NCBI GenBank assembly: GCA_963728445.1
Contig: CAVSJO010000008.1
Coordinates: 42,330 to 106,329, forward strand
Direction of reading: 5' to 3'
Length of the DNA: 64,000 nucleotides
From: an uncultured Gemmatimonadales bacterium
Lineage (GTDB): Bacteria; Gemmatimonadota; Gemmatimonadetes; Longimicrobiales; RSA9
Shown here: piece after piece, positions 11,623 to 59,732 of the stretch
Layout of the letters: the number at the start of each line of letters is the position of its first letter
Numbering within the stretch: position 1 is the first letter of the stretch
Notes under the pieces: generated by a model
What the model was told of the DNA's origin: nothing
What the model saw: only the letters and a program-made list of their open reading frames with translations
The model's database searches: none
Position numbers and translations under genes: made by a program

Positions 11623-11659
11623 CGTGACTCCATGATGCGTTCTCGTCGGATGGGGCGCA

Positions 11660-13481: not shown

Positions 13482-14039
13482 ATGCCCGGACGCACGAAGC
13501 ACCTTCTCGCCCCCGCGCTGATCGCGGGTGTCGGCATCTTCGCGCTGGGCGCTCCGGCGTCGGCGCAGCAGACCACGCCGGCGACACCGGAGCCTGCCAC
13601 GTGCAAGGCGACGATCGCGCCGCAGGCGCTGCAGGCCCAGACGGACCCGTTCCAGCTGCGGGTGGCGCTGACGCAGGACATCGGTGACGTGAGCGCGGCC
13701 ACGATCCAGGAGGAGAACAGCGGACTGCAGGTCTCGGTGAAGAAGGCGGACGAGGACGCTGCGGAGGACGTGCAGGAGGGCGCTGCGGAGCCGGCCACGG
13801 AAGAATCGCCGGAGCCGACGCCCGTGACGGAGCCGCAGACGACACCTGCTACGCCGGCGACGCCGGCACCGAAGCCCGCCGCTCCGGCGGCCGACGCCGC
13901 GGCCGCCCCTGCGCAGGTCGTGTGGCTGAACCTGAACGCCAGCGTCGCGCAGCCGGGGGACTACACGCTCCAGCTGACGGGCGCGAACGGAACGTGCCAG
14001 GGCACGGTTTCGATTCAGCCTTCCGGCGGTTCGAAGTAA
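13482..14039 (+). CDS. secreted hypothetical protein with Pro/Thr/Ala-rich central linker
   Basis: AGGAGG lies 6 nt upstream of ATG 13482. Signal peptide is MPGRTKHLLAPALIAGVGIFALGAPASAQQ. I recognise no domain. Confidence 0.5.
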   Translation: MPGRTKHLLAPALIAGVGIFALGAPASAQQTTPATPEPATCKATIAPQALQAQTDPFQLRVALTQDIGDVSAATIQEENSGLQVSVKKADEDAAEDVQEGAAEPATEESPEPTPVTEPQTTPATPATPAPKPAAPAADAAAAPAQVVWLNLNASVAQPGDYTLQLTGANGTCQGTVSIQPSGGSK

Positions 14040-39134: not shown

Positions 39135-39165
39135 GGCCCCCGCAGATCATGGAGTCCCCCTCCCG

Positions 39166-40914
39166 ATGAGCCCGTCCTTCCTCAGGCGGCTGAAGGAACG
39201 CAAGCTCGGGCAGTGGGGGCTGGCGTACCTCGGCGCTGCGTGGCTGCTGCTCCAGCTCCTGTCGATGGTCGCGCAGCCGTTCGCATGGCCCGACCTCGCG
39301 ATGCGCCTCGCGACAGTACTGCTGGCCCTCGGCCTGCCCGTTGTTCTGGTGCTCGCATGGTACCACGGCGAGAATGGGAGCCAGCGCGTCAGCAGCATCG
39401 AGCTGCTGATGCTCGCAGGGATCCTCGCGATCGCCGGTGCGGCCGTGGCCTTCGTGATCCGGCCGGTCGCGGAAGGAAGCGCTCCGGGAGGACGGGGGGC
39501 GACGGCGCCGCCGCCCGCCGGCGCGCACTCGCTCGCCGTTCTGCCGCTCAGCGACCTCAGCCCCGACTCGGCCGATCGCTATCTGGGCGACGGCGTGAGC
39601 GAGGAGATCCTCGGCGGCCTGACACGGCTCCCGGGGCTCACGGTCGTGGGGCGCGCCTCATCCTTCCGTTTTCGCGGCCCCGACGTGGACGCGCTGCAGG
39701 TCGGTCGAGAGCTGGGAGTCGGCGCCCTTCTGGCCGGCACGATCCAGCGAGCCGGCAGCGCGGTGCGCATCCATGTCGAGCTGGTGGACACGCGCACGGG
39801 TGTCCAGCTCTGGACGGAGCGCTACGACCGGCAAATGGGCAACCTCTTCGCACTCGAGGACGACATCGCCCGGGCCATCACCGACGCGCTTCGCGTCCAG
39901 CTCGACGGCGGCACGGTCGTGCGCCGCGGCACGCCGAACGCGGACGCGCATGACCTCGTACTGCGCGCCAACGCCCTCTCCCGGGCGGCCGACGAGCAGA
40001 GCATCGACCGGGCGGTCGCATTGTACGGGCAGGCGATTGCGATGGACTCGGGCTACGCTGCGGCCTGGGCCGGACTGTCGCAGGCGTACGGGCAGCTCGC
40101 CGATGCCTACCGCTCGCCCGTGGAGATGGCGACCCTGGCCGACCGCGCCGCAACGCGCGCCGTGGCGCTCGACGATTCATGCGCCCTCGCGCACACGATG
40201 CTCGGCGACGCCCGCTACGACTGGGAGTGGCGCTACGCCGACGCACGGCGGGAGTACCGCCGCGCCCTCGCCCTCGACCCCGGCGTGGGCGAGGCACACC
40301 TGCGATACGCGACGCTGCTCCTGTTCGTGGATGAAGACTTCGACAGTGCAGAGCGCGAGCTGGCGACCGCAGCCACGCTCGATCCGTTCAACCCCGACGT
40401 GGCGCGCTGGCAGGAATTCGTCGCGATCGCACGGCGGGATACGACGGCGGCGCTCCGACTGGCGCGCCACGTCACGGAGCTCGCCGGCGGGCCCGTGTAC
40501 TACAGCACCCCACCTCTCGCGTTGGCGAACGCCATGGCCGGCCGGTGGTCGGATTGCGTCCGGTCCTTCGATCCGGTCCCGGCCAGCCGGCTCGCCGGCC
40601 GCAGCACGCTGGCCATGTGTCAGGCCCGAATCGGAGACACGGCGAGCGCACGCCGCGTTCTCGACGAGCTGGTCGCCCAGCCCTACATGGACCAGGTGAA
40701 CGTGGCCCAGGTCCAGCTCGCGATGGGCGATCGCGACGCCGCCCTCGCGTCGCTCGCCCGCGCTGTGCAGGACCGCTCCGCGAACGTGACCGGCATCCGA
40801 ACGATGCCGTGGCTGGCAGAGCTATGGGGCGATCCCCGCTTCGCCGCGATCATCGCCCGCGCCGGCCTGCCGCCGCACGGGCCGCCCAGCGAGCACGCGG
40901 GGGCGGCGCCGTGA
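39166..40914 (+). CDS. membrane-anchored TPR protein with TolB-N/FlgO-like module (kinase-less sensor-type architecture)
   Basis: N-terminus is MSPSFLRRLKERKLGQWGLAYLGAAWLLLQLL plus TM helices. AVLPLSDLSPD...YLGDGVSEEILGGLTRLPGLTVVGRAS follows, then TPR repeats. This is the same layout as the extracytoplasmic part of the kinase at 45381. Confidence 0.7.
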   Translation: MSPSFLRRLKERKLGQWGLAYLGAAWLLLQLLSMVAQPFAWPDLAMRLATVLLALGLPVVLVLAWYHGENGSQRVSSIELLMLAGILAIAGAAVAFVIRPVAEGSAPGGRGATAPPPAGAHSLAVLPLSDLSPDSADRYLGDGVSEEILGGLTRLPGLTVVGRASSFRFRGPDVDALQVGRELGVGALLAGTIQRAGSAVRIHVELVDTRTGVQLWTERYDRQMGNLFALEDDIARAITDALRVQLDGGTVVRRGTPNADAHDLVLRANALSRAADEQSIDRAVALYGQAIAMDSGYAAAWAGLSQAYGQLADAYRSPVEMATLADRAATRAVALDDSCALAHTMLGDARYDWEWRYADARREYRRALALDPGVGEAHLRYATLLLFVDEDFDSAERELATAATLDPFNPDVARWQEFVAIARRDTTAALRLARHVTELAGGPVYYSTPPLALANAMAGRWSDCVRSFDPVPASRLAGRSTLAMCQARIGDTASARRVLDELVAQPYMDQVNVAQVQLAMGDRDAALASLARAVQDRSANVTGIRTMPWLAELWGDPRFAAIIARAGLPPHGPPSEHAGAAP

Positions 40915-43619
40915 GCACCGTGGCGGAGCGTCTCGCGGCGGCTGTCGGCGGCCGTTACCGCGTCGAGCGCGAGCTCGGCGCCGGCGGCATGGCCACGGTC
41001 TACCTCGCCGAGGACGTGCGCCACCACCGCAAGGTCGCCATCAAGGTGCTGCACCCGGAGCTCAGCGCCGTGCTCGGGCCCGAGCGCTTCCTCAAGGAGA
41101 TCGAGCTCACCGCGAGTCTCCAGCACCCGCACATCCTGCCGCTGTTCGACTCGGGCTCGGCCGACGGGCTGCTCTACTACGTGATGCCGTTCGTGGAGGG
41201 CGAGACGCTGCGCGCGCGGCTCGAGCGCGAACGGCAGCTGCCCGTCGGCGACGCCGTCCGGATCGCAGCCGAGTGCGCGGACGCGCTGCAGTACGCGCAC
41301 GAGCGCGGCGTGATCCACCGCGACGTCAAGCCCGAGAACATCCTGCTGCAGAACGGCCACGCGCTGGTCGCGGACTTCGGCATTGCGCTCGCAGTCGAGC
41401 AGGCGGGCGGGGCGCGCATGACGCAGACGGGGCTCTCGCTCGGCACGCCCCAGTACATGGCGCCCGAGCAGGCGATGGGGGAGCGCAATCTCGACGCGCG
41501 GACGGACGTCTACGCCCTCGGCGCCGTGACGTACGAGATGCTAGCGGGCGAACCGCCGTTCGCCGGGCCGACCGCCCAGGCGATCGTTGCGCGCGTGATG
41601 ACCGAGCGGCCGCGCCCGCTCGGCGAGCTCCGCGAGACGGTGCCGGAAGCCGTCGAGGACGCGGTCCACACCGCGCTGGCGAAGCTGCCCGCCGATCGGT
41701 TCGCCACGATGGAGGACTTCGCCGACGTCCTGGCAGGACGGATCGTGGTGAAGTCTGCGGCGAGCGCTGGACCCTCCGATCATCGCGCAGGCGAACAGCG
41801 GCGGTTCAGCACCTGGCGTGACGCGTTTCGCCTGCCTGTCACACGCATTCTCGCGGCCGCGCTGGGCGTCGCCATCGCTGCGGGTGCGCTGCGCGAATGG
41901 AGTCGGGGCAGCGAGAACGGCGATGTGCCACGCACGGCGGTCCGATTCCGGCTCACTTTCGACGACCAGGTGAAATGGGTCGGCAACGGACTCGGCAGTC
42001 CGATCGTGCTCTCCCCCGACGGAACTCGTCTCGTTTTCGTGGGCCGTGACGGCACCGGCTCCGCTCGACTCTACGTGCGTCCGCTCGATGAGCTTGCGGC
42101 TCGCGCACTGCCTGGAACCGAGAACGCCGAGAAGCCGTTCTGGTCGCCGGACGGCAGGTGGATCGGGTTCAGCTCCGGCGGGCAGCTCGAGAAGGTTCCG
42201 GTCGATGGCGGCACGCCGGCGGTGCTGGCCCAGATCGACGGTCTCGAAGGGGCGAGCTGGGGTGCCGGCGATCAGATCGTGATCGCGTCGCAGGCGCGCC
42301 TGAGAATTCTTCCAGCCGCCGGTGGTACGCCGCAGCTGTTGACGCGGTCTACCGGACCCGGAGCGGCCTCGGAGCGGTGGCCTCTGGTGCTTCCCGACGG
42401 GAAGACCGTGCTGTACTCGAGCTGGTCCGGCACCCTCGTCTCGAGTGCACGGATCGCCGTGCTCTCGCTGCCGGAGGGAAAGCCCAGGGTCCTCGACCTG
42501 CCGGGCACGCAGCCGCTCGGCGTCATCGACGGCCAGCTCGTGTACGCAAGCGCCTCCGGTGTGGTCATGGCGGTGCCGTTCGACGTGCGGTCGCAGCGGG
42601 TCTCCGGAACGCCCGTGGCCGTGATCGATGGGGTCGCGGTGGGGCCAGGGGGCAACTTGAAGGGCAGCGTGTCCCCCAGCGGCTCGGTCGTGTATGCCAG
42701 TGGTTCCGCGCCCACGACTCGTCTGATGATCGGCGCGCCCGGCGAGCTGCCGAGGCTGCTCCTGCCGGACGAGCGCTCGTACGCCTTTCCCCGCTTTTCG
42801 CCGGATGGGAAGCACCTCGCGTTCGCCGTGTTTGCCGGGAGGGCGGACGTGTGGATCTACGATCTTCCGTCCGGCCCGCTCCGGCGCCTGACGTTCGAGG
42901 GGCCGCTCAACGACCGGCCCGAATGGAGCGCCGACAGCCGGCAGGTGCTCTTCCGTTCGAACAGGAGCGGCGAGAGCGCCATCTGGATCCAACCCGCCGA
43001 CGGGAGTCGTCCGGCGAAGCTGCTCTTCGCGGTTCCGAACGAGGCGGTGGACGAGGCCGTCCTGTCGCCCGACGGCGAATATCTGGTCATGCAGCTCGAC
43101 TCGGCGGGATCCGGCGGAATCATCACATACCGCCGCATGCGCGGGGACACCGCCGTTCACGTGATCGCGAATCCGGAGATCGGGCAGGCGGCACACGCAC
43201 GCCCGTCGCCCGACGGGCACTGGGTCGCGTATTCATCGAGCGAGGCTGGGAACTGGGAGGTCTACGTCAGGCCGTTCCCGTCGCTCGAGGCTCGCTATCA
43301 GGCGTCGCTGAACGGTGGCGCACAGCCGGTCTGGTCGCCCGACGCCCGCCGGCTGTTCTACGTGAGTGACGGCCGTCTGATCGCGGCGACGTTCGCCTTC
43401 GATCCCTTCACGATCGTGAGACGCGACACGGTTCTGGAGAGCATGGCCGCCACGCCCACCGGCGCGGGAGCGTACACGTTCTACCACGCGAACTACGACG
43501 TCGCGCCCGATGGCAGGTCCTTCGTGTTTCTCACCGCCGGCGGCGAGGATGCCCCCGTCATCGTCGTTCATGACTGGCAGCTCGAGCTCAGGGCGCGGAT
43601 CGATGCTTCTCACCCGTAG
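40911..43619 (+). CDS. Hanks-type Ser/Thr protein kinase with TM helix and C-terminal TolB-like (PD40) beta-propeller
   Basis: GTG at 40911 overlaps the upstream stop (GTGA). Motifs GAGGMATV, VAIKVL, HRDVKPENIL, DFGIA and APEQ. Repeated SPDG...FV PD40 motifs follow. Confidence 0.85.
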   Translation: MSTVAERLAAAVGGRYRVERELGAGGMATVYLAEDVRHHRKVAIKVLHPELSAVLGPERFLKEIELTASLQHPHILPLFDSGSADGLLYYVMPFVEGETLRARLERERQLPVGDAVRIAAECADALQYAHERGVIHRDVKPENILLQNGHALVADFGIALAVEQAGGARMTQTGLSLGTPQYMAPEQAMGERNLDARTDVYALGAVTYEMLAGEPPFAGPTAQAIVARVMTERPRPLGELRETVPEAVEDAVHTALAKLPADRFATMEDFADVLAGRIVVKSAASAGPSDHRAGEQRRFSTWRDAFRLPVTRILAAALGVAIAAGALREWSRGSENGDVPRTAVRFRLTFDDQVKWVGNGLGSPIVLSPDGTRLVFVGRDGTGSARLYVRPLDELAARALPGTENAEKPFWSPDGRWIGFSSGGQLEKVPVDGGTPAVLAQIDGLEGASWGAGDQIVIASQARLRILPAAGGTPQLLTRSTGPGAASERWPLVLPDGKTVLYSSWSGTLVSSARIAVLSLPEGKPRVLDLPGTQPLGVIDGQLVYASASGVVMAVPFDVRSQRVSGTPVAVIDGVAVGPGGNLKGSVSPSGSVVYASGSAPTTRLMIGAPGELPRLLLPDERSYAFPRFSPDGKHLAFAVFAGRADVWIYDLPSGPLRRLTFEGPLNDRPEWSADSRQVLFRSNRSGESAIWIQPADGSRPAKLLFAVPNEAVDEAVLSPDGEYLVMQLDSAGSGGIITYRRMRGDTAVHVIANPEIGQAAHARPSPDGHWVAYSSSEAGNWEVYVRPFPSLEARYQASLNGGAQPVWSPDARRLFYVSDGRLIAATFAFDPFTIVRRDTVLESMAATPTGAGAYTFYHANYDVAPDGRSFVFLTAGGEDAPVIVVHDWQLELRARIDASHP

Positions 43620-43661
43620 CCCCGTATGCAGCTCTCGATTCACGCAGGACGACACGCATGA

Positions 43662-44828
43662 GTCCAGCCCGCGCTGTCGCCCGATGGGCGGTACGTCGCC
43701 TACGTTTCGAATACCGCAGCCGGCATGCGCATCTACGTGCGGCAGGTCACCGGCGGCAGGCCTGCGCCGCTTTCGGACGACTCGCTGGACGTGGAGAGCA
43801 ACCCGCAGTGGTCGCCGGATGGATCACGCATCCTGTTTCTCTCGAACGGCGGTGTGTTCAGTGCACCCTCCTCGGGCGGGCCCGCGCGACCGGAGATGGC
43901 CGAACCCCGCTCCGGAGCGGTGATCTCCGCGGTCTGGGCCCCGGACGGGCGGGCGATCGCCTACGCCGTAGGGGACTCGATCTACATCCGGGACCCCGCC
44001 GGCGGTGTCCAATTTCTCACGCGAATCCCGGAGGCCTCCCTCTGCCAGTGGTCGCCCGACGGAACTCGCCTCGCCTGCGCATCGCAAAACTCCTACTATT
44101 TCCGGCTCGGGAATTTCTTCGGTAACCTGTCGCCCAGCCGCATCGTCGTTGCGCGCGTGTCAGATGGCACCACGAGCATCGTCTCCGACAGCACCTCGAT
44201 CAATCAGAGGCCCGTCTGGTCGAACGATGGGCAATGGCTCTACTTTGTCTCGAGCCGGTTGGGGGTTCGCGATGTCTACGCGATGCGCATCGATCGCGCG
44301 GACCGTGCGAGCGGTGATCCGCTGCGACTCACCACGGGTCTCGACGCGCATACCATTTCCATTGCCGGAGACGGCTCGCGATTCGCCTACGACCGGTACA
44401 TTGCCACCTCAAACCTCTGGTCGCTCCCGTTCCCGCCCCACGGGGCCACGCAGGATGCAGCGACGGCGGTTACCAGTGGTACGCAGGTGATCGAAAACGA
44501 TTCGACAGACGGCTCCTGGATCTATTTCGACTCGGACGTGAGCGGCGTCTCGGAGCTGTACCGGCAGCGCCTACCCGATGGGGAGCCGGAACAGCTCACG
44601 ACGGATCCGAGCGATGAGTTCTCGCCCGACCCATCCCCCGACGGCCGCGAGCTCGCGTTCCATTCGTGGCGCTCGGGCTCCCGGGACCTGTACGTCATGC
44701 CGCTCCACGGGGAGTCGAAAACGCGTTTGGATTTCCTGTTAGCTGCCGTCGCCGTCCGCCTGCCGCCTGCGAAACCGCCGGCTGCATACCGCGCCTGCCC
44801 ACCGGCCGATCACCATGGCTGCGGGTGA
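43662..44828 (+). pseudogene. orphan TolB-like (PD40) beta-propeller remnant lacking both ends
   Basis: The frame opens directly after a TGA at 43659-43661 with no start codon, yet already encodes a PD40 repeat (LSPDGRYVAYVSN). It has no kinase or TM part. Similarity ends near 44715 (LYVMPLHGES), and the tail is junk overlapping the sigma gene. Confidence 0.6.
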
Positions 44829-45384
44829 GGCTCTGCCTCCCGAACTGCTACGCTCCCTGCAGGAGGGGGGCGAGGCCGCCGCCGAGCGGCTGTTCGAGGC
44901 GCTATACGACGAGCTCCACCGCCTCGCGGGGCGCGTCCGACACGGGCGCGCGAGCGAGACCCTCAGCACCACCGCGCTGGTGCACGAGGCGTACATCAAG
45001 CTCACCTCCTCCCACGACATCGACGTCCAGGGGCGCCGCCACTTCTACCGTCTCGCGGCGCGCGCGATGCGTCAGATCCTGGTGGACGCAGCCCGGCGTC
45101 GCATGGCTGAGAAGCGTGGCGGCGACCCGCTTCCCGTCACGTTCGACGAGGCGCTGCACCCGACGCCGATGCCGTCGACGAGGCTCCTTTCGCTGGACCG
45201 GGCGATCGACCGGCTCTCCGACGTCGACCCCCGTGCAGCCCAGGTCGTGGAGTGCCGTTTCTTCGCCGGCCTGTCGGTCGAGGAGACGGCGACAGCCCTC
45301 GACGTCTCGGCCCGGACGGTGAAGCGCGACTGGCGCGTCGCCCGCGCCCGGCTCGCCGCAGAGCTCGCGGCGGAGGACGGATGA
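44815..45384 (+). CDS. ECF-type sigma-70 factor, PF07638/TIGR02999-like (kinase-associated class)
   Basis: The N-terminus LLRSLQEGGEAAAERLFEALYDELHRLAGR...ETLSTTALVHEAYIKL is typical of PF07638. Region 4 is VVECRFFAGLSVEETATALDVSARTVKRDW. No anti-sigma gene is adjacent. Confidence 0.85.
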   Translation: MAAGEALPPELLRSLQEGGEAAAERLFEALYDELHRLAGRVRHGRASETLSTTALVHEAYIKLTSSHDIDVQGRRHFYRLAARAMRQILVDAARRRMAEKRGGDPLPVTFDEALHPTPMPSTRLLSLDRAIDRLSDVDPRAAQVVECRFFAGLSVEETATALDVSARTVKRDWRVARARLAAELAAEDG

Positions 45385-48257
45385 GCCGCGAATCGGAGGA
45401 GCGGGAGCGCTGGCGCCGCGTGCGCGCCCGATTCGAGGACGCAGTCGGCCGGAGCGAAGCGGAGTGGCCTGCCATCGTGGCGGCGACTCCGGCGGAGGAC
45501 CGCGAGCTGCTCGCCCGCATGCTGGCAGCGGACGCCGCGCCGGAGCCCCTCCTCGATCGTGCACACGACGATCTCGCGAACGACCTGATTCCGCCGAAGG
45601 AGCCGCTGCCCGACCGCATCGGCCGCTATGTCGTGGTACGGTCGCTGGGGCGGGGTGGCATGGGCCAGGTGCTGCTCGCACGGCCGAACGACGGCTTCGA
45701 GCCGCGCGACGTAGCCATCAAGCTCCTCCGGCGAGGCATGGACAGCGAGGACGTGCTGCGTCGCTTCCGCGCCGAGCGCCAGATCCTGGAACGGCTCAGC
45801 CATCCGAACATCGCCCGGCTGCTGGACGCCGGCATCTCGGCTTCCGGCCGCCCGTACTTCGTCATGGAGTACGTGCCCGGCGCGCCGATCACGGAATACT
45901 GCCAGTCGCGTGATCTCGCGCTCGACGCGCGCCTGCGGCTCTTCGCGGCGGCCTGCTCCGCGGTTCAGCATGCTCATGAGCACGGCGTGGTGCACCGGGA
46001 CCTGAAGCCGAGCAACGTGATCGTGGCGGACGGGTCCGACCCCGCGGGGCCTGCGGTGAAGCTTCTGGACTTCGGCATCGCGAAGATGCTCGAGCCGGGA
46101 GGACTCGACCTGACCGAGATCCGGACGCGGACCGGGCTGAAGCTCATGACGCCGGAGTACGCGAGCCCCGAACAGGTCCGGGGCGGGGACATCGGGCCTT
46201 CGAGCGACGTGTACAGCCTCGGCGTCGTGCTCTACGAGCTCCTTTCGGGGAATCGGCCATACGAGCTGAAGGGGCTCTCCCCCGCCGAGCTGGAGCGCGT
46301 CGTCTGCGAGGAGCCGCCGCCCGACCTTCCGAACCATGACAGCCGGACCCCTGCCGCGCTCCGGAAGGTGCTCTCGGCTGCGCTCCACAAGGACCCGGAG
46401 CGCAGGTACGCCTCGGCCGGGGCGCTCGAGGAAGACGTGAAGCGATTCCTCGACCGTGAGCCCGTCCGGGCACGCGGCGATCCAGTCGGCTACCGCGCCG
46501 GTAGATTCGTGCGGAGACACCGGGTCGGGCTGGCGCTGTCGACCGCCCTGCTGGGGGTTGCCCTCGCGATCGCGGCGGTCGGCGAGCGCCTCGCCGCCGG
46601 CCCGTTCGCCCCGACCGATGGCGACCCGCGGGCGGTCGCCGTGCTGCCGTTCCGCTACGAAGGTCCGGGAGATCAGGCGTACTACGCCGACGCCCTGGCG
46701 AACGATGTGAGCGCCAGCCTCTCCGGCCTGCCGGGCCTGCGGGTCGTCACCCCGCACCGCGTGCTCCCCGACCCCGATTCGGCGGCCGAGCGGGCCGAGC
46801 TCGGCGCCGAGCTCGGCGCGTCCTACCTCCTGACCGGGCGCGTTCGCTTCGAGCGACCGACGGAGCCCTCGGGCCGGGTGGTGGTGAGTCCCCGCCTGGT
46901 GCGCGTGGCGGACGGCAGGGTGGTGTGGAGTCGTACGTTCGACCGGCCGATGAAGCAGATCTTCGCGGTCCAGGAGGCGGTCGCTCGCGGCGCGGCCCTG
47001 GCCCTGGATGTCGCGGGGGATGCGGCCGGCGCAGCACCGGGTGCGCCTCCCACGACGAACCTCGAGGCGTACCGCTTCTATCTTCGCGGCAATGACTTCC
47101 GCCGCTTCCTCGAGGACGAGCAGCGGCTGCGTCTGGCGGAGGCGTCCTACCGCCGTGCGGTGGCTCTCGACAGCACGTTCGCCGAGGCGTGGGCGGCGCT
47201 GTCGGTGACGGAGACGGCGCTCTGGTTCAACCATTTCGACCGCGCGGACAGTAGACTGGACGAGGCCTGGGACGCGGCGGAGCGCGCCCTGAAGTACGAC
47301 CCGGGGACCCCGGAGGCCTACTACGCCCTCGGGCTCTTCGTCTACCAGGGGCAGGGCGATCTGCGACAGGCGCAGCGGTACTTCGAGCGCGCGCTCGAGC
47401 TCCAGCCCAACCATGAAGACGCCCTCGTCGGACTCGCGAACGTGCTCAGGCGCCAGGGACACCTCGAGGAGGCCATGTCCCGGTATCAGGAGCTCAGGGC
47501 CATAGACCCGCTGGACCCGAGCTTTCTTTTCTCCGAGGCCTTCACCCAGCAGCTTCTCCGGAACTACGGCGAGGCCGAGAAGCTGTACGCGGCCGCCGCG
47601 GCCGACGGTGCGGACCTGCCGCTGCTCCATGGCACGTGGGCGCTGCTGCGCCTGAGCCGGACGGGGTCGGTGGCGGACGCGCGTGCCGTCCTGGAGCAGG
47701 GCACGGGGCCCGCCGTCTACAACGACTACACGCGCTACATCGCGCTGGACCTGACGCTCATGGACGGACAGTACCGGGAAGCGCTCCAGCGCGTCGACGC
47801 CTGGAAGCTCGACGTCCTGGACGCCCAGCCGGTGTACGTGCCGGCCGCCTGGCTCCGTGCGCGGGCCTACCGCGGCCTTGGACAGCCTGACAGCGCCCGG
47901 GCGGAGGAGCGGATCGCCGCCCGCGTCCTGGAGGAGCGCGTGTCCAGCCATCCCGACGACGCGCGAGCGTACGGTACCCTGGGCCGCGTCGACGCCGCCC
48001 TCGGACGTGGCGACGCCGCCGTTCGCGTGGCGAAGCGGGCCGTGGAGCTCCAGCCGCAGTCCAGCGACGCCGTGCTGGCTCCCTTCCGCCTCGAGGACCT
48101 GGCGGCCGTCTACGTCGCCACGGGACGCCTCGACGACGCCGCCGCCGTCATGGATTCCCTCCTCACACGGCCTTCCCTCCTCTCACAGGAGAACATCCAG
48201 GCCGATCCGCGGTGGGCGCCGCTGCGCGGGCGACCGGAGTTTTCCGCCGCGCACTGA
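45381..48257 (+). CDS. Hanks-type Ser/Thr protein kinase with TM helix, TolB-N-like module and TPR sensor region
   Basis: ATG at 45381 overlaps the sigma stop (ATGA), with GGAGGA upstream. Motifs GRGGMGQV, VAIKLL, HRDLKPSNV, DFGIA and SPEQ. A TM helix (VGLALSTALLGVALAIAAV) is followed by AVAVLPFRYEG... and TPRs. Confidence 0.85.
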   Translation: MSRESEERERWRRVRARFEDAVGRSEAEWPAIVAATPAEDRELLARMLAADAAPEPLLDRAHDDLANDLIPPKEPLPDRIGRYVVVRSLGRGGMGQVLLARPNDGFEPRDVAIKLLRRGMDSEDVLRRFRAERQILERLSHPNIARLLDAGISASGRPYFVMEYVPGAPITEYCQSRDLALDARLRLFAAACSAVQHAHEHGVVHRDLKPSNVIVADGSDPAGPAVKLLDFGIAKMLEPGGLDLTEIRTRTGLKLMTPEYASPEQVRGGDIGPSSDVYSLGVVLYELLSGNRPYELKGLSPAELERVVCEEPPPDLPNHDSRTPAALRKVLSAALHKDPERRYASAGALEEDVKRFLDREPVRARGDPVGYRAGRFVRRHRVGLALSTALLGVALAIAAVGERLAAGPFAPTDGDPRAVAVLPFRYEGPGDQAYYADALANDVSASLSGLPGLRVVTPHRVLPDPDSAAERAELGAELGASYLLTGRVRFERPTEPSGRVVVSPRLVRVADGRVVWSRTFDRPMKQIFAVQEAVARGAALALDVAGDAAGAAPGAPPTTNLEAYRFYLRGNDFRRFLEDEQRLRLAEASYRRAVALDSTFAEAWAALSVTETALWFNHFDRADSRLDEAWDAAERALKYDPGTPEAYYALGLFVYQGQGDLRQAQRYFERALELQPNHEDALVGLANVLRRQGHLEEAMSRYQELRAIDPLDPSFLFSEAFTQQLLRNYGEAEKLYAAAAADGADLPLLHGTWALLRLSRTGSVADARAVLEQGTGPAVYNDYTRYIALDLTLMDGQYREALQRVDAWKLDVLDAQPVYVPAAWLRARAYRGLGQPDSARAEERIAARVLEERVSSHPDDARAYGTLGRVDAALGRGDAAVRVAKRAVELQPQSSDAVLAPFRLEDLAAVYVATGRLDDAAAVMDSLLTRPSLLSQENIQADPRWAPLRGRPEFSAAH

Positions 48258-48265
48258 TCCGGCAA

Positions 48266-48292
48266 TGGCCTCCTCCGGGAGCTTTCCGCGTA
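48266..48292 (+). promoter_or_regulatory. candidate ECF-type promoter (TGGCC-N17-GCGTA), copy 1
   Basis: TGGCC at 48266 and GCGTA at 48288 (offset 22), followed by GGGGAG. The same motif and offset occur at 50846 and 52349. Confidence 0.4.
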
Positions 48293-48324
48293 GGGGAGAG
48301 AGCGACGGATCCGCTCCCCCTTTT
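48293..48324 (+). promoter_or_regulatory. leader hairpin plus T4 immediately before the RBS (5' stem-loop or attenuator)
   Basis: GGGGAG(agag)CG-acggatc-CGCTCCCC, then C and TTTT, then CCGGAGG and GTG at 48338. A near-identical element lies at 50874-50904. Confidence 0.4.
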
Positions 48325-48337
48325 CCGGAGGCACCCC

Positions 48338-50674
48338 GTGCGACGAGCCCGAACCTTCATTCTTCTCCTGACGGCCCTCGCGGCCGCAGCCTGCGGCGAG
48401 CAGCCGACCGCGCCCGATGCCCCCGGTGCACCGGCGCCGAACAAGCCGAGCATGCTCTTCGTCGGCTCCGGCGACTCCTTCACGCAGGTGAGCGCGGGCG
48501 GCGATTACACCTGCGCGCTCAAGACCGACGGCTCGCTCGCCTGCTGGGGATCCGACTCCGACGGCCAGGTGGGCGGGCCCTCGGCGGCCGGCACCGGCTT
48601 CACGCAGGTGAGTGCGGGCTTCGATCACACCTGCGCGCTCGAGAGCGACGGCTCGCTCGCCTGCTGGGGAAACAACGACTACAACCAGGTCAGCGAGCCT
48701 TCGGCGGCCGGCACCGGCTTCACGCAGGTGAGTGCGGGCGGCTATCACACCTGCGCGCTCAAGACCGACGGCTCGATTGCCTGCTGGGGATCCGACGGCC
48801 AAGGCCAGGTGAGCAGCCCGGCGGCGGCCGGCACCGGCTTCACGCAGGTGAGTGCGGGCATCCTTCACACCTGCGCGCTCAAGACCGACGGCTCGATTGC
48901 CTGCTGGGGATCCGACAGCCAGGGCCAGGTGAGCAACGCGCCGACAGGTACCGGCTTCACGCAGGTGAGTGCGGGCACCTATCACACCTGCGCGCTCAAG
49001 ACCGACGGCTCGATTGCCTGCTGGGGAGACGACAGACAGGGCCAGGTGAGTAACGCGCCGACAGGCACCGGCTTCTCGCAGGTGAGTGCGGGCGGCACCC
49101 ATACCTGCGCGCTCAAGACCGACGGCTCGCTCGCCTGCTGGGGGGGATACGGCGTCGAACACGGCCAGGTGAGCGGGCCGGCGGCGGCCGGCACCGGCTT
49201 CACGCAGGTGAGTGCGGGCCTCGATCACACCTGCGCGCTCAAGACCGACGGCTCGCTCGCCTGCTGGGGATACGACAGCCAGGGCCAGGTGAGCGACACG
49301 CCCAGCGGCGGCACCACGGTCCTCCCCACGGCCACCTACGCCGCTCCGGCCTCGGCGGCCGAAGGGAGCGACTTCACCCTCTCGCTCACGGACGCCGCGG
49401 TGCCCGGCTACACGGGAACCGTCAACTTCACCTACGCATTCGACTGCGGCGACGGCAGCGGCTACGGCGCCTTCTCCTCCGGGAACAGCGCATCGTGCAC
49501 CGCGCCCACGACGGGGCCCATCACGGTCCGGGGCACCGTGAAGGACGAGGGCGGTGACTCGCAGGAGTACACGGCCACCGTCAGCATCCTCGCAGACCAG
49601 GACGGGGACGGGGTCGCCGACGAGCTCGACAACTGTCCGACGACCGCGAACCCCGACCAGGCGGACACCGATGGAGACGGCGTCGGCGACGCGTGCGCGA
49701 ACACCGCGCCATCGGCGGACCTCGGCGGCCCCTACACGGGAAGCGAGGGAGCGGCCGTCGGCTTCGACGGCTCGGGCTCCGACGACCCCGACTCCGACCC
49801 GCTGACCTACGCCTGGGACTTCGGCGACGGCAGCACCGGCACGGGGCCGACCCCCACCCACGCTTACGCCGATGACGGGGAGTACACCGTCACGCTCGTG
49901 GTGAACGACGGAACCGTGGACAGCGATCCTGCGACCACGACGGTCGGCATCTCCAACGTTGCGCCGGACCTGGGCACGATCACGCCGAGCACCGTAGACC
50001 CGCTCGCAGTGAGCTCGACGGCGTTCTCGGTGAGCGCGAGCTTCACCGACCCCGGTGTTCTGGATACCCATGCCGCCACGATCGATTGGGGCGACGGGAG
50101 CACCTCGAGCGGCACGGTCACGGAAGCCAGTGGCTCCGGAAGCGTGAACGGCAACCACCTCTATACGACAGCGGGCGTGTACGCCGTGAGCATCACGCTG
50201 AGCGACGACGACAGCGGCTCGGATGCGGAAATCTACGAGTACGTGGTCGTGTACGATCCGAGCGCCGGTTTCGTGACGGGCGGCGGGTGGATCGATTCCC
50301 CCGAGAACGCCTATGTGCAGGACCCGTCTCTGACCGGCAAGGCGCACTTCGCCTTCACCAGCCGCTACAAGAAGGGGAAGAGCACGCCCGACGGCTCGAC
50401 CGAGTTCCGGTTCAAGGCCGGTGGCATGAACTTCCACAGCGACGTGCAGGACTGGCTGGTCGTGAACCAGGGCGGCACGAACGCCCAGTTCAAGGGCGAG
50501 GGCACGATCAACGGCAGCGGCAGCTACAAGTTCATGATCTGGGCGAGCGACGGCTCGCCTGACACCTTCCGGATCAAGATCTGGCAGGACGACGGCAGCG
50601 GCGAGAGCGTCGTCTACGACAACGGCGCCAGGCAGGCGATCTCCGGGGGCAGCATCGTGATCCACGCGAAGTAG
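48338..50674 (+). CDS. modular lipoprotein: 7 mini-RCC1 blades, PKD-like domains, thrombospondin type-3 repeat, conserved C-terminal domain
   Basis: GTG at 48338 after GGAGG. Signal is VRRARTFILLLTALAAAAC. Seven repeats follow the pattern FTQVSAG.xHTCALKTDGSxACWG. The TSP3-like segment is DQDGDGVADELDNCPTTANPDQADTDGDGVGDAC. The PKD segment is LTYAWDFGDGSTG...YTVTLVVNDG. The C-terminal ~145 aa are shared with the next gene. Confidence 0.85.
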   Translation: MRRARTFILLLTALAAAACGEQPTAPDAPGAPAPNKPSMLFVGSGDSFTQVSAGGDYTCALKTDGSLACWGSDSDGQVGGPSAAGTGFTQVSAGFDHTCALESDGSLACWGNNDYNQVSEPSAAGTGFTQVSAGGYHTCALKTDGSIACWGSDGQGQVSSPAAAGTGFTQVSAGILHTCALKTDGSIACWGSDSQGQVSNAPTGTGFTQVSAGTYHTCALKTDGSIACWGDDRQGQVSNAPTGTGFSQVSAGGTHTCALKTDGSLACWGGYGVEHGQVSGPAAAGTGFTQVSAGLDHTCALKTDGSLACWGYDSQGQVSDTPSGGTTVLPTATYAAPASAAEGSDFTLSLTDAAVPGYTGTVNFTYAFDCGDGSGYGAFSSGNSASCTAPTTGPITVRGTVKDEGGDSQEYTATVSILADQDGDGVADELDNCPTTANPDQADTDGDGVGDACANTAPSADLGGPYTGSEGAAVGFDGSGSDDPDSDPLTYAWDFGDGSTGTGPTPTHAYADDGEYTVTLVVNDGTVDSDPATTTVGISNVAPDLGTITPSTVDPLAVSSTAFSVSASFTDPGVLDTHAATIDWGDGSTSSGTVTEASGSGSVNGNHLYTTAGVYAVSITLSDDDSGSDAEIYEYVVVYDPSAGFVTGGGWIDSPENAYVQDPSLTGKAHFAFTSRYKKGKSTPDGSTEFRFKAGGMNFHSDVQDWLVVNQGGTNAQFKGEGTINGSGSYKFMIWASDGSPDTFRIKIWQDDGSGESVVYDNGARQAISGGSIVIHAK
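48479..49312 (+). repeat. intragenic tandem DNA repeat, 7 units of ~117-126 bp (mini-RCC1 blades)
   Basis: Units restart at about 48479, 48599, 48719, 48839, 48956, 49073 and 49199. They share long identical strings such as cacacctgcgcgctcaagaccgacggctcg and ggcaccggcttcacgcaggtgagtgcgggc. Confidence 0.9.
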
Positions 50675-50731
50675 CCCTCCAGCTCCACGCTCGCCTGCGA
50701 GGGCGGTCTCGAGGGAGGGAAGCAGCAGGAA

Positions 50732-50758
50732 GGGGGAGTCGGAACATCCGGCTCCCCC
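50732..50758 (+). terminator. GC-rich hairpin downstream of lipoprotein gene A (terminator-like, no T tract)
   Basis: GGGGGAGTCGG-aacat-CCGGCTCCCCC, an 11-bp stem 58 nt after the stop at 50674. Confidence 0.45.
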
Positions 50759-50845
50759 TTCGCCTTCCTCTCGCCGAATCGTATCGAGGCAAATCCGGAA
50801 CGGGCGACGCCGCGAGGACGTCCGAAACTGGCCGCCAGCCACGGG

Positions 50846-50873
50846 TGGCCCCGGGCCGGGGCTTTCTGCGTTA
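50846..50873 (+). promoter_or_regulatory. candidate ECF-type promoter (TGGCC-N17-GCGT), copy 2
   Basis: TGGCC at 50846 and GCGTTA at 50868 (offset 22), then GGGGAG. A leader hairpin plus TTTT follows at 50874-50904, then GGAGG and GTG at 50918. Confidence 0.4.
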
Positions 50874-50917
50874 GGGGAGGGGCGACGGATCCGCTCCCCC
50901 TTTTCCGGAGGTACCCG

Positions 50918-52219
50918 GTGCGACATCGTCGAATCTTCCTTCTTCTCCTGGCGGCCCTCGGGGTCGCGGCCTGCTCCGAGCTGCCGACGGAGTCCACGGC
51001 CAGCGCCGATCCAGTCGGGCCCGCCGTAGCCGGTGATGTGACTCCCACGAGCTGCCTGGCCGGAACGTACCTCAGCAGCGGCACGTGCGTCCCGGCGGAC
51101 CCCGGCTACTACGTGGACGCGGACGGCGCCGTGGCGGAGACGGCGTGTCTGGAGGGCGAATACCAGCCCGATTCGGGCGCTACATCGTGCCTGGTGGCGG
51201 ACCCCGGCTTTTTCGTGAACGTGACGGGCGCCGAGGCGCAGTCGCCGTGTCCCATGGGCCGATACCAGCCCTCTTCAGGGGCTACCTCGTGCCTGGCGGC
51301 GGATGCCGGCTATTTCGTGGACACGGTGGGTGCCGAGGCGGAGACGAAGTGTGGCCTGGGTACGTACCAGCCCAACCCGGAGTCCACCTCCTGTCTGCTG
51401 GCGGACGCCGGCTACTACGTGGACGTCAAGGGTGCCGTGTCGGAGACGCCGTGCCCCGCCGGGTATACCTCGGATGCGGGAGCGAGCGCCTGTGTCCCGG
51501 AGAACACGCCGCCTTCGGTCGACGCGATCCTGGGGCCGGTGGATCCCGTTGCAGTCGGCACGGCCGTGGACGTGCGCGTTCAGTTCACCGACCCCGACGA
51601 GACGGACACCCACACGGCGCTCATCGACTGGGGCGACGGCGCCGAGACCGCCGGAACGAGCTACGCGTTCAGCGGGGGGGACGGCACGTTCGACGGAAGC
51701 CATGTCTACGCAGCCGCGGGGGTCTATACCGTGGAGGTCAGCGTCGAGGACCAGGCCGGCGGGGTCGGGACGCTGGCCTACCAGTACGTCGTCGTCTACG
51801 ACCCCAGCGCGGGCTTCACAACCGGCGCCGGGATGATCGACTCGCCGGCAGGCGCGTATACCCACGATCCGAGCGCAACGGGCAGGGCCCACTTCGGATT
51901 CAACAGCCGCTACAAGAAGGGGAAGAGCACGCCCTCAGGAACCACCCAGTTCCGCTTCCACGCCGCAGGCATGGACTTCCAGAGCGACGTGCAGGACTGG
52001 CTGGTCGTGAACCAGGGCGGCACCAACGCCCAGTTCAAGGGCAGCGGCTCCATCAACGGTGCCGGCAGCTACCAGTTCATGATCTGGGCGAGCGACGACT
52101 CGCCTGACACCTTCCGGATCAAGATCTGGCAGGACGACGGCGGGGTCGAGAACGTCGTCTACGACAACGGCGTCCAGCAGGCGATCTCCGCAGGCAACAT
52201 CAAGATCCACAGCCATTAA
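50918..52219 (+). CDS. modular lipoprotein: ephrin-receptor-like/TNFR-like Cys-rich repeats, PKD-like domain, conserved C-terminal domain
   Basis: GTG start, signal MRHRRIFLLLLAALGVAAC. Four to five repeats follow the pattern C.xGxYQPxxGATSCLxADxGYFVxxxGAxAExxC. The same C-terminal domain as gene A is present (YVVVYDPSAGF...FRIKIWQDDG...VVYDNG). Confidence 0.85.
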   Translation: MRHRRIFLLLLAALGVAACSELPTESTASADPVGPAVAGDVTPTSCLAGTYLSSGTCVPADPGYYVDADGAVAETACLEGEYQPDSGATSCLVADPGFFVNVTGAEAQSPCPMGRYQPSSGATSCLAADAGYFVDTVGAEAETKCGLGTYQPNPESTSCLLADAGYYVDVKGAVSETPCPAGYTSDAGASACVPENTPPSVDAILGPVDPVAVGTAVDVRVQFTDPDETDTHTALIDWGDGAETAGTSYAFSGGDGTFDGSHVYAAAGVYTVEVSVEDQAGGVGTLAYQYVVVYDPSAGFTTGAGMIDSPAGAYTHDPSATGRAHFGFNSRYKKGKSTPSGTTQFRFHAAGMDFQSDVQDWLVVNQGGTNAQFKGSGSINGAGSYQFMIWASDDSPDTFRIKIWQDDGGVENVVYDNGVQQAISAGNIKIHSH

Positions 52220-52270
52220 GGCTTCGGCTCCACGCCACCGGCCGGTGCCGGTGCGCGGCGGAACATCAGA

Positions 52271-52300
52271 GGGGGCAGCCGGACAGACCCGGCTGCCCCC
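52271..52300 (+). terminator. GC-rich hairpin downstream of lipoprotein gene B (terminator-like/REP-like)
   Basis: GGGGGCAGCCGG-acagac-CCGGCTGCCCCC, a 12-bp stem. A near-identical copy lies at 54284. Confidence 0.45.
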
Positions 52301-52348
52301 CTCGTGGCTCCCGCCCTTCCACCCTCCACCCGTCGCCGCCGTCCGCGA

Positions 52349-52375
52349 TGGCCCCTCACCGACGCGCCCTGCGTA
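52349..52375 (+). promoter_or_regulatory. candidate ECF-type promoter (TGGCC-N17-GCGTA), copy 3
   Basis: TGGCC at 52349 and GCGTA at 52371 (offset 22), then GGGGAG, which can pair with CTCCCC at 52415-52420. The spacer is unrelated to copies 1 and 2. Confidence 0.4.
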
Positions 52376-52473
52376 GGGGAGAAGTGGACGGGCGCGGTGC
52401 CCTCGCTGTAGGCCCTCCCCGTCCTCGCTGCCGCTACCGCTATTCCTATCAAACCGCTTCCAGCGAGGTACTC

Positions 52474-54222
52474 GTGTCATCCATCCGCTCGCGATCCGCG
52501 CCGTCCTTCCCTCCCGCCTCCCGCACCGCCCCGGCGCGCCGGCCGCGCGTGCTCGTGGTCGCCGCCGCGCTGGGGGTCGCCCTCTGCGTCGCTGCCTGTA
52601 CCGACCAGCCCACCGCGCCCGCCGACCTCTCCATGCCCTCGGCCGACCTCGTGGACGGGGCGCACGGCACGAACGGCAACGCGCACTTCTATTTCCTGAA
52701 GCCGCTCGTCACGCCGCCGGCGTCCTTCCCGGGCACATTCGATCCGACGCAGGCGCCCACGGTCGAGATCTGTCAGTGGGACGCGGACGCGACCACACCG
52801 GCATGCGTCGGGGCGAACGTCGCCGAGTTCAGTACCACCACGGGCTCCGGCTCGGAGATCATCCGCATCGATCCCGACGTCGAGCAGTACATCGTCGACT
52901 GGCACACCGACGAGTCGAATCTCGACGCGACGAAGGTCTACCGGATCCGCGTGCTGATCGGCCCGTACGAGCTGGGCCACGCCGACCTCGACCCGGTCAC
53001 GAGCGGGCGCGAGCTCAAGAACGTGAACACGGGCGAGTACATCGCGCTCAAGGACGGGCGGACGCTCCCCATCAAGTTCCGGATCGAACAGGGCGCGATC
53101 CCGGACGTCCAGCCGCTCGCCGCCGGCGGGCTCCACACCTGCGCGCTGTCGAGCACCGGGGCGACGTACTGTTGGGGATACAACCAACAGGGCGAGCTCG
53201 GGTCGGGGACCGCAGGCGGGGCCACGGCGTCCCCGCAGACCGTCACGGGGAACCACACCTTCAGCGCGGTCGCGAGCGGCCGCTACTTCAGTTGCGCGCT
53301 CACGCCGGCCGGGGCGGCCTGGTGCTGGGGAGACAACCGAAACGGCGAACTCGGCACCGGCACGATCGGCGGCAGCAGCCCGGCTCCGGTGGCGGTCGCA
53401 GGCGGGCACGTCTTCACGGCGATCTCGGCGGGGGACAGCCATGCCTGCGGGCTCACGAGCGCTGGGACGACCTGGTGCTGGGGGGGCAACCTATACGGCC
53501 AGCTCGGCATCGGCAGTGCGACGTTCTATGGCAATCCCACGCCGACGGCAGTGCCGGGCGTGTCGTTCCGGACGCTCTCGGCGGGTGGAAGCCACACCTG
53601 CGGCATCACGACCGCCGGGGTGGCCGAGTGCTGGGGAGGCAACTCTTCAGGACAGCTCGGGATCGGGACTACCACGGCCTATCCAGAAGTCATCTCCACC
53701 CCGACGCCGGTGAGTACGACTGAACGCTTCGTCAGCCTGAGCGCGGGGGTCGACTACACCTGCGCCCTCGACGACACAGGTCAGGCGTGGTGCTGGGGGG
53801 CCAACTCGTATGGTAAACTCGGACGCACCACGTTCGGGACCCTCGAGCCCACCCCCGTGCCGGTGAGCGGGAGCCAGACCTTCGCGGCCATCACGGCGGG
53901 CCCGGATCACGCCTGTGGGCTAACGAGCGCCGGGACGGCCTGGTGCTGGGGGCGCAACGAACACGGTGAGATCGGCACCGGCAGCGTGACGGAGCTCTAT
54001 CCGAAGGGCATCGACACGCCGACGGAAGTCCCGGGCGTCATGTTCCGGACGCTGTCTGCGGGGGGCAGCCACACCTGCGGGATCACGACCGCAGGGGCCG
54101 CCGAATGCTGGGGAAACAACACCGCAGGACAGCTCGGGACCGGGTCTTTCTCGACGAACTACCCGTACGCCATCCCGAACCCGACGCAGGTGACGGGCAG
54201 CCTCACGTTCCTCACGCACTGA
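52474..54222 (+). CDS. lipoprotein with N-terminal beta-rich domain and 7 canonical RCC1 repeats
   Basis: GAGG precedes GTG at 52474. Lipobox is LGVALCVAAC. Seven ~50-aa repeats follow the pattern SAGxxHxCxLTxxGxxxCWGxNxxGQLG. Confidence 0.85.
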   Translation: MSSIRSRSAPSFPPASRTAPARRPRVLVVAAALGVALCVAACTDQPTAPADLSMPSADLVDGAHGTNGNAHFYFLKPLVTPPASFPGTFDPTQAPTVEICQWDADATTPACVGANVAEFSTTTGSGSEIIRIDPDVEQYIVDWHTDESNLDATKVYRIRVLIGPYELGHADLDPVTSGRELKNVNTGEYIALKDGRTLPIKFRIEQGAIPDVQPLAAGGLHTCALSSTGATYCWGYNQQGELGSGTAGGATASPQTVTGNHTFSAVASGRYFSCALTPAGAAWCWGDNRNGELGTGTIGGSSPAPVAVAGGHVFTAISAGDSHACGLTSAGTTWCWGGNLYGQLGIGSATFYGNPTPTAVPGVSFRTLSAGGSHTCGITTAGVAECWGGNSSGQLGIGTTTAYPEVISTPTPVSTTERFVSLSAGVDYTCALDDTGQAWCWGANSYGKLGRTTFGTLEPTPVPVSGSQTFAAITAGPDHACGLTSAGTAWCWGRNEHGEIGTGSVTELYPKGIDTPTEVPGVMFRTLSAGGSHTCGITTAGAAECWGNNTAGQLGTGSFSTNYPYAIPNPTQVTGSLTFLTH

Positions 54223-54283
54223 CCCGGCGAGCCTGGGCCGCGTCGCGCCGTGGGGCGGCCCCGAACGGCGCGAGCAGCACGCA

Positions 54284-54314
54284 GGGGGCAGCCGGAACAC
54301 CCCGGCTGCCCCCC
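54284..54314 (+). terminator. GC-rich hairpin downstream of lipoprotein gene C (terminator-like/REP-like)
   Basis: GGGGGCAGCCGG-aacacc-CCGGCTGCCCCCC. The arm sequence is the same as at 52271. Confidence 0.45.
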
Positions 54315-59581: not shown

Positions 59582-59655
<74 letters not shown>

Positions 59656-59659
59656 TCAG

Positions 59660-59732
59660 TACCCCCACGGGGAATCGAACCCCGGTTTCCTGGCTGAGAA
59701 CCAGATGTCCTGGGCCACTAGACGATGGGGGC
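59660..59732 (-). tRNA. tRNA-Glu (anticodon CTC)
   Basis: The minus strand reads GCCCCCATCGTCTAGTGGCCCAGGACATCTGGTTCTCAGCCAGGAAACCGGGGTTCGATTCCCCGTGGGGGTA. It has a Glu-type D arm, anticodon loop TTCTCAG, and a G1-U72 first pair. Confidence 0.8.

Follow-up and report, generated by a model that had tools for sequence, protein, structure and literature searches.

A kinase-linked ECF43-like σ factor of a Gemmatimonadota bacterium and a predicted promoter motif shared by orthologous loci with different neighboring genes

Extracytoplasmic function (ECF) σ factors of the ECF43 group are defined by an adjacent Hanks kinase, the lack of an anti-σ factor and uncharged residues that replace the acidic motif of region σ2.2 (PMC8999054, PMC8103513, PMC13147305). 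The replacement reads STTA in EcfP and QTTA in the ECF43 consensus; the second threonine of (Q/S)TTA is the phospho-acceptor, and its phosphorylation restores binding to the β′ subunit (PMC8999054, PMC8103513, PMC13147305). The closest described systems are EcfP/PknT of Vibrio parahaemolyticus, an ECF43 pair of polymyxin resistance (PMC8999054, PMC8103513), and EcfK/PknS of Xanthomonas citri, an ECF43 pair that controls a type VI secretion system (PMC13147305). Here, we analyze a locus that resembles them in a 64-kb stretch of contig CAVSJO010000008.1 from an uncultured Gemmatimonadales bacterium (the whole stretch is referred to as the window). In this locus, an ECF σ factor gene and a transmembrane Ser/Thr kinase gene are followed by three genes coding for predicted lipoproteins (g1, g2 and g3), each of which is preceded by a copy of a bipartite motif that we interpret as a promoter. 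The genes and predicted promoters are as follows.

44815-45384, + strand: ECF σ factor gene, 189 amino acids (aa), ECF43-like (PF07638, TIGR02999; G+C content at third codon positions (GC3) 0.88)
45381-48257, + strand: transmembrane Hanks-type Ser/Thr kinase gene, 958 aa (Pkinase 5e-43, tetratricopeptide repeat (TPR) families, 9EED match)
48265-48298, + strand: predicted promoter P1, A-TGGCC(T)C, 17 nt, GCGTA-GGGGAG (29.5 bits with a position weight matrix)
48338-50674, + strand: g1, predicted lipoprotein, 778 aa (Pfam; GC3 0.90)
50845-50879, + strand: predicted promoter P2, G-TGGCCCC, 15 nt, GCGTT-AGGGGAG (duplicate of P1)
50918-52219, + strand: g2, predicted lipoprotein, 433 aa (Pfam; homologue in locus L092)
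52348-52381, + strand: predicted promoter P3, A-TGGCCCC, 15 nt, GCGTA-GGGGAG (motif, non-coding region)
52474-54222, + strand: g3, predicted lipoprotein, 582 aa (Pfam; N-terminal domain homologous in locus L004)

The σ factor, the only PF07638 σ gene of the window, matches PF07638 in a Pfam search (3.3e-52, 177 bits) and TIGR02999 with 202 bits against a cutoff of 126. Its region 2.2 reads S51-T52-T53-A54, where other ECF σ factors carry acidic DAED/DxxD. Among 32 σ relatives, T53 is invariant and T52 is at least 90% conserved; the residue equivalent to T53 is the one phosphorylated in EcfP and EcfK (PMC8999054, PMC13147305). T109 in the linker, 56 residues beyond T53, is also well conserved in these relatives and is a possible second phospho-acceptor. 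No anti-σ domain was found in the two genes that immediately flank the σ gene (a PD40 fragment and the kinase), which were the neighbors looked at. Relatives with 49-51% identity and adjoining kinases are present in Xanthomonadales/Lysobacterales (loci L024 and L041). The placement of the σ factor as an ordinary, ECF43-like member of the EcfP/PknT and EcfK/PknS kind is thus supported by the family matches (PF07638/TIGR02999), the STTA with invariant T53, the PknS-like kinase and the conserved kinase synteny described below. The family, the lack of an anti-σ neighbor and the ECF43-type grouping had all been proposed in a preliminary description made from the sequence of the window, and each of them is supported.

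The kinase consists of an N-terminal extension of ~80 aa, the kinase domain, one transmembrane helix, a membrane-proximal periplasmic module and TPRs. In a Pfam search, it matches Pkinase (5e-43) and, in its C-terminal half, many TPR families; the catalytic motifs VAIK, HRDLKPSN, DFG and SPEQ are intact in the translation, and there is a single hydrophobic helix at residues 382-400. The best natural PDB match is 9EED (6e-47, residues 10-358), which is X. citri PknS(1-364) (PMC13147305). The alignment starts at residue 10 and, therefore, takes in the pre-kinase extension, which was reported as conserved by the PknS authors (PMC13147305). Of the three parts that had been recognized earlier outside the kinase domain, the transmembrane helix and the TPRs are borne out; the membrane-proximal module, which had been called TolB-N-like, gave sub-threshold matches only (LpoB 0.014, TolB_N 0.074, CsgG 0.21), and its single-sequence structure model (predicted local distance difference test (pLDDT) of 42) was too low in confidence for use.

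The stop codon of the σ gene overlaps the start codon of the kinase gene as ATGA (gacggATGAgcc, 45381-45384), just as had been noted before, and translational coupling of the two genes is predicted. The pairing itself is widespread: the kinase gene lies directly downstream in 73 of 86 fetched σ-homologue loci, which span Gemmatimonadota, Acidobacteriota, Rhodothermales, Balneolales, Ignavibacteria, Planctomycetota, Verrucomicrobiota, Lysobacterales and Myxococcota. In locus L004, the orthologous kinase gene (10570-13497 of a 164-kb JGI contig) is split among three frames and followed by a T8 run; it is intact in the sister contig L094, and the breaks probably reflect errors of assembly or sequencing and not pseudogenization.

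We consider it fairly probable that the locus is an ECF43-type signaling module with local target genes, in which the kinase phosphorylates T53 and the σ factor reads the promoters P1-P3. P1 starts 8 nt beyond the kinase stop codon. P3 is located 93 nt upstream of the g3 start, and the region 52348-52473 is taken as intergenic because its GC3 of 0.62 marks it as non-coding. TGGCC starts at positions 48266, 50846 and 52349 and is followed each time, after 17 nt, by GCGT. For the long pattern TGGCC-N17-GCGT(A/T)..GGGGAG, 0.01 occurrences are expected in the window, and it was observed at 48266 and 52349; direct reading of the g2 site (50846) gives GCGTTAGGGGAG, which has one extra base compared to the long pattern. 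The earlier claim that the motif precedes each lipoprotein gene, therefore, holds, except that its form is not identical in the three places.

The three copies are not fully independent either. g1 and g2 are paralogues whose 5′ 134 nt, promoter spacer to signal peptide, are 84% alike (48275-48408 versus 50856-50988). Since the 5′ regions of g1 and g2 constitute one duplication, the window provides two independent sites rather than the three counted originally. One may ask whether the three upstream regions resemble each other merely by tandem duplication of a lipoprotein cassette, or by chance. The duplicated 5′ segment, a 3′ segment of 433 nt that g1 and g2 have in common (82%) and the near-identical hairpins after g2 and g3 would all fit; still, the region upstream of g3 has nothing in common with those of g1 and g2 except the motif, chance predicts 0.01 occurrences, and the motif precedes unrelated genes in nine other contigs. 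This explanation is strongly disfavored, and we regard it as very improbable indeed.

The search for the motif in relatives, which the preliminary description had called for, was based on the loci of these relatives. The closest named relatives of the σ factor in a database comparison are proteins of Gemmatimonadales and of Gemmatimonadota metagenome-assembled genomes, and the best σ locus in a collection of 185,579 genomes is 68% identical. Nine contigs of the orthologous clade were fetched. Eight of them bear the σ gene (loci L001, L004, L005/L006, L007, L092, L093, L094 and L095; σ factors 66-73% identical), and the ninth, L091, which has no σ gene, came from a metagenome motif scan. The motif with the same spacing was found in all eight σ-bearing loci; as all loci except L091 had been chosen via the σ factor, only the position of the sites within a locus counts as evidence. 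In seven of the eight (eight of nine counting the window), the motif is located immediately after the kinase stop codon. In L092, the kinase gene and a g2-like gene converge, and two divergent motif copies lie at the far end of the latter. One of them precedes the g2 homologue (55% identical), which adjoins the orthologous σ-kinase pair and has the same promoter and a 5′ untranslated leader homologous to those of g1 and g2. Extra copies are present before a PQQ/cytochrome c gene (L094), before a gene of 202 aa (L095) and, in L007, before an AraC-type gene located upstream of the σ gene.

Altogether, there are 16 sites on 10 contigs, the window and L091 included. TGGCC and the C at +6 are invariant, 15 sites have C at +5, and the A before TGGCC and the T at +8 are each present in 14. 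The 3′ end of the spacer is T-rich. The second block, CGTA, is conserved in 16, 15, 16 and 15 sites at its four positions, respectively, and the distance between the blocks is constant in all 16, which gives the consensus ATGGCCCC-N16-CGTA-GGGG. The sites are strand-specific and lie 32-290 nt upstream of start codons. The downstream genes code for SnoaL/DUF4440 proteins in five loci and for lipoproteins that resemble the N-terminal part of g3 in two (L004, compared directly, and L094, inferred); others code for a g2-like protein, an SBP_bac_5 peptide ABC transporter operon, AraC and PQQ proteins. Because these genes are mutually unrelated, the conservation of the motif cannot be attributed to paralogy of the genes that follow it.

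The specificity of the motif was assessed with a leave-one-out weight matrix, the lowest site score being used as the threshold, and with a shorter pattern. The counts were as follows.

Weight matrix, orthologous loci, 199 kb: exactly the 16 known sites
Weight matrix, other Gemmatimonadota loci, 275 kb: 1 match
Weight matrix, other phyla, about 810 kb: 1 independent match
TGGCCC-N16-NCGT[AT], Gemmatimonadota: 14 observed, 1.4 expected
TGGCCC-N16-NCGT[AT], other phyla: 2 observed, 3.3 expected

A motif that is common genome-wide regardless of context had been named beforehand as an outcome that would speak against its role; within the relatives' loci, further matches are few. The extra Gemmatimonadota matches of the shorter pattern fall in the paralogous σ-kinase loci L022 and L049, where TGGCCCC-N16-CGTT(T/C)AC stands 32-60 nt ahead of flanking genes whose products have signal peptides. 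L022, from Gemmatimonadales, also has a variant, TGGCCC-N16-CGTTTACC (6835-6875), that lies upstream of the kinase start and overlaps the σ gene at its 3′ end, which hints at feedback onto the kinase in the paralogous clade. A promoter common to all kinase-linked PF07638 σ factors was sought by dyad counting on 67 kinase-downstream regions, which gave nothing; nor was a conserved element found after the kinase in Acidobacteriaceae loci.

The metagenome motif scan returned five matches, of which one (L091) is convincing, one (L088) is high-scoring and three are likely due to chance. The L088 copy (32 bits; 654-686, − strand, of a 3.5-kb metagenome contig) is ~70 nt upstream of an IMP-dehydrogenase-like (guaB-like) gene, and the start codon of a divergent gene overlaps its −35 block; the copy may be due to chance or represent a dispersed site.

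The reading of the motif as a promoter is well supported by these comparisons. A σ-specific promoter is suggested by the two blocks, the fixed spacer, CGTA at the −10 position, the strand specificity and the location 32-290 nt before start codons. The architecture is similar to that of ECF promoters, with two blocks ~16-17 nt apart and CGT in 15 of 16 sites. The strongest point is that the motif persists beside the orthologous σ-kinase pair while cargo genes are exchanged and differ in orientation. Instead of a promoter, the conserved element might be an operator for a DNA-binding regulator or an RNA element in the 5′ leader, for conservation that runs 5-7 nt past CGTA (GGGGAG) is unusual for a −10 region and the GGGGAG of g1 and g2 can pair with a downstream CTCCCC. 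We find this quite improbable given the strand-specific, start-proximal location of the sites and the two blocks with an invariant spacing of about two helical turns. In addition, the loci differ in sequence past GGGG, folding of the 5′ leaders is no stronger than that of shuffled sequences (z of +0.6, -0.06 and +0.3), and there is no match to an Rfam family; on the last two counts, a structured leader RNA was rejected. A σ54 promoter was discarded as well: TGGCAC-N5-TTGC could not be fitted, and there is no conserved GC 10-11 nt after GG.

If the motif is a promoter, the question is which σ factor reads it. Several observations weigh against assigning it to the kinase-linked σ factor. The −35 block (TGGCCCC) lacks the AAC of typical ECF promoters, which makes it a variant −35 element and is not disqualifying. 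Many PF07638 paralogues are present in these genomes and may share the −35 block. In L091, no kinase gene is present in the 443 nt upstream, where there is a divergent gene for a secreted protein, or in the 6.9 kb downstream; sites away from the module, therefore, probably exist. No motif copy was found upstream of the σ gene in five loci, so that the usual ECF autoregulation was not seen. Finally, the scan of the source genome covers the 64-kb window, and a dispersed regulon or many further sites are possible.

The motif could thus be a real promoter read by another σ factor, either a PF07638 paralogue or a general stress ECF σ factor, in which case its adjacency to the pair would reflect an inherited neighborhood. 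The TGGCCCC block shared with paralogous Gemmatimonadota loci, the missing autoregulatory copy and the L091 site with no adjoining kinase point in this direction, but the complete motif with GCGTA(A)GGGG occurs solely in the loci of one orthologous clade, the paralogous loci differ from it at −10 (CGTT(T/C)AC), and, as stated above, the motif stays beside the pair when cargo and orientation change. We consider such an alternative σ factor unlikely and favor recognition by the kinase-linked one.

According to the mechanism we propose, the membrane kinase would sense an envelope or extracellular cue via its periplasmic TPR region and phosphorylate T53 in the STTA of region 2.2, perhaps along with a linker Ser/Thr such as T109. 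The added negative charge would allow the σ factor to bind core RNA polymerase, and the holoenzyme would initiate at promoters composed of A-TGGCCCC (−35), a spacer of 16 nt that is T-rich at its 3′ end, CGTA (−10) and (A)GGGG. Three such promoters would produce three separate single-gene units, each coding for a modular lipoprotein and ending in a strong hairpin. We infer the phosphorylation of the σ factor by the kinase and the pairing of the σ factor with the promoter from the genes and motifs of these loci; the transcription starts and the cellular location and role of g1-g3 are likewise putative.

The output appears to be less constant than the regulator. Judging by the genes that follow the motif, the lipoprotein cargo is specific to the source lineage and its nearest relatives (L092, L004 and L094) and does not constitute an output conserved among orthologues. 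The modular-lipoprotein regulon envisaged in the preliminary description is, in this sense, not upheld, as orthologous loci have SnoaL-like, AraC, ABC-transporter and PQQ genes instead; what is conserved of the neighborhood in relatives is the σ-kinase pair together with the motif. Evenly balanced, in our estimation, is the broader proposal that in one Gemmatimonadota clade a conserved kinase-σ pair with a “private” promoter, A-TGGCCCC-N16-CGTA-GGGG, became attached to different cargo in each lineage. If true, the input would be fixed and the output rewired by promoter capture, and an ECF43-type σ factor from outside Proteobacteria would have a target promoter defined by computation, in which the −35 block is atypical and a conserved G-run follows −10.

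The three lipoprotein genes follow the kinase gene directly on the same strand, and Pfam agrees with the modules recognized in them earlier (RCC1, mini-RCC1, PKD, thrombospondin type 3 and ephrin-receptor-like). The GC3 values of 0.86-0.90 across all five genes support the reading frames. The g1 product contains seven short RCC1 repeats (RCC1_2 x7), TSP_3, two PKD domains and a 146-aa C-terminal domain; the g2 product contains ephrin-receptor-like Cys repeats (Ephrin_rec_like), PKD and the C-terminal domain that it has in common with g1. In the g3 product, an N-terminal domain of ~170 aa that matches no Pfam family is followed by a seven-blade RCC1 propeller (RCC1 x7). By pattern inspection, the N-termini of g2 (GVAAC) and g3 (CVAAC) fit the lipobox [LVI][ASTVI][GAS]C, and that of g1 (AAAAC), which is less canonical, fits it loosely; the three proteins are candidate lipoproteins. 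The “surface” and “adhesion” labels once attached to the three proteins are guesses.

The C-terminal domains of g1 and g2 (50234-50671 and 51779-52216) are 77% identical and have no Pfam match; their similarity to the NCBIfam family “post-COAP-1” is sub-threshold (~30 bits, cutoff 40). The combination of PKD with this domain is found in hundreds of proteins of Anaerolineales, Acidimicrobiia, Phycisphaerales and others. In g3, the N-terminal domain (52474-53130) is 37% identical (E 1e-22) to a lipoprotein encoded after the orthologous kinase gene of L004 (13669-14436) and, from the matching gene order and lengths, is probably also present in the L094 lipoprotein. g1/g2 homologues were also seen in contigs of other phyla with 51-61% G+C (L096, 3311-9121; L097, 4297-9635; L098, 3951-9332). 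Beside them, there is a divergent gene for a regulator of ~1100 aa with BTAD, NB-ARC/AAA_16 and TPR domains, and in L096 and L097 an open reading frame of ~70 aa is located between the two genes; the motif is absent near the g1/g2 homologues of these three contigs. This suggests that modular secreted proteins of the g1/g2 type have been coupled time and again to a regulator of their own, the type of which varies.

Each lipoprotein gene is followed by a related GC-rich hairpin, as originally described. The hairpins are the following.

50732-50758, + strand: terminator-like hairpin after g1, GGGGGAGTCGG-AACAT-CCGGCTCCCCC (fold z -3.43)
52271-52300, + strand: terminator-like hairpin after g2, 12-bp perfect stem GGGGGCAGCCGG/CCGGCTGCCCCC (fold z ~-3.4)
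54284-54313, + strand: terminator-like hairpin after g3, stem as in the g2 hairpin (fold z ~-3.4)

The 12-bp stems after g2 and g3 are identical, yet these two hairpins adjoin unrelated coding sequences; the identity may be due to gene conversion, a cassette end common to both or a function in protein or RNA binding. No T tract follows any of the three hairpins, and a consensus terminator scan does not call them. There are no other hairpins of this type in the 64 kb. A genome-wide repeat was considered and rejected, as the window has three copies only and none was found in relatives.

Upstream of the σ gene, the window (G+C ~70%) contains a run of kinase-related genes (36520-44825), three of them in addition to the σ-linked kinase gene. 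Ser/Thr kinases with PD40 β-propeller repeats are encoded at ~36.5-39.1 kb, where the kinase domain is seemingly split between frames, and at 40545-43616. The gene at 39166-40911 codes for a TPR protein, a homologue of the sensor half of the σ-linked kinase. The PD40 fragment at 43725-~44700 has no N-terminal part, its open frame continues into the σ start, and it is probably a truncated paralogue. Farther downstream, on the − strand, a gene for an AAA_14/DUF4143 ATPase (57976-59244) adjoins tRNA-Val(CAC) and tRNA-Glu(CTC) genes (59582-59732). No composition shift that would mark the σ-lipoprotein cluster as an island was seen in the 64-kb window.

Kinase-activated ECF σ factors are abundant in environmental phyla, and in the literature covered, EcfP and EcfK are the two studied experimentally. 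The locus offers a testable Gemmatimonadota case with a defined candidate phospho-acceptor (T53), a promoter consensus and three predicted single-gene targets beside the regulator, and a constant sensor and σ factor with swapped target genes suggests a useful model of small-regulon evolution. What is new is modest, namely, a promoter consensus for one Gemmatimonadota clade and a local output that differs between orthologues. The regulator family is already known to be large and is characterized, with ECF43-type σ-kinase pairs numbering in the thousands, and the working principle of such systems is unchanged.

The promoters of Bacillus subtilis σW and σM read TGAAAC-N16-CGTA. The predicted promoters of the present locus share with them the two blocks, the fixed spacing of ~16-17 nt and CGTA at −10; they differ in the −35 block TGGCCCC, which has no AAC, and in the conserved G-run right after −10. 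At the level of the regulator, groups ECF59, 61, 62, 217, 267 and 283 also have synteny of σ and Ser/Thr kinase genes without an anti-σ factor (PMC7826278). The locus is similar to them in both respects, but they retain a DAED-like acidic motif (PMC8999054), in contrast to the STTA found here. With EcfP/PknT, the locus has in common a kinase gene in the neighborhood, a σ factor presumed to be intrinsically inactive and, going by the published motif rather than by an alignment, an identical STTA in place of DAED (PMC8999054, PMC8103513); the outputs of EcfP/PknT are unrelated to g1-g3.

The resemblance to EcfK/PknS extends to a PF07638-type σ factor without an anti-σ factor, an adjoining transmembrane Hanks kinase that has TPRs in the periplasm and an ~80-aa extension at the N-terminus, and a conserved threonine in σ2.2 (T51 in EcfK, T53 here). 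EcfK also needs the linker threonine T106, 55 residues after T51 (PMC13147305), to which T109 may correspond, an equivalence drawn from the spacing alone. There are also differences: EcfK/PknS belongs to Gammaproteobacteria and not to Gemmatimonadota, EcfK carries QATE with one acidic residue where the σ factor described here, like EcfP, has STTA, and the kinase of the present locus has an additional membrane-proximal periplasmic module compared to PknS. The targets differ as well, being those of a type VI secretion system in X. citri and, by our prediction, three modular lipoproteins here.

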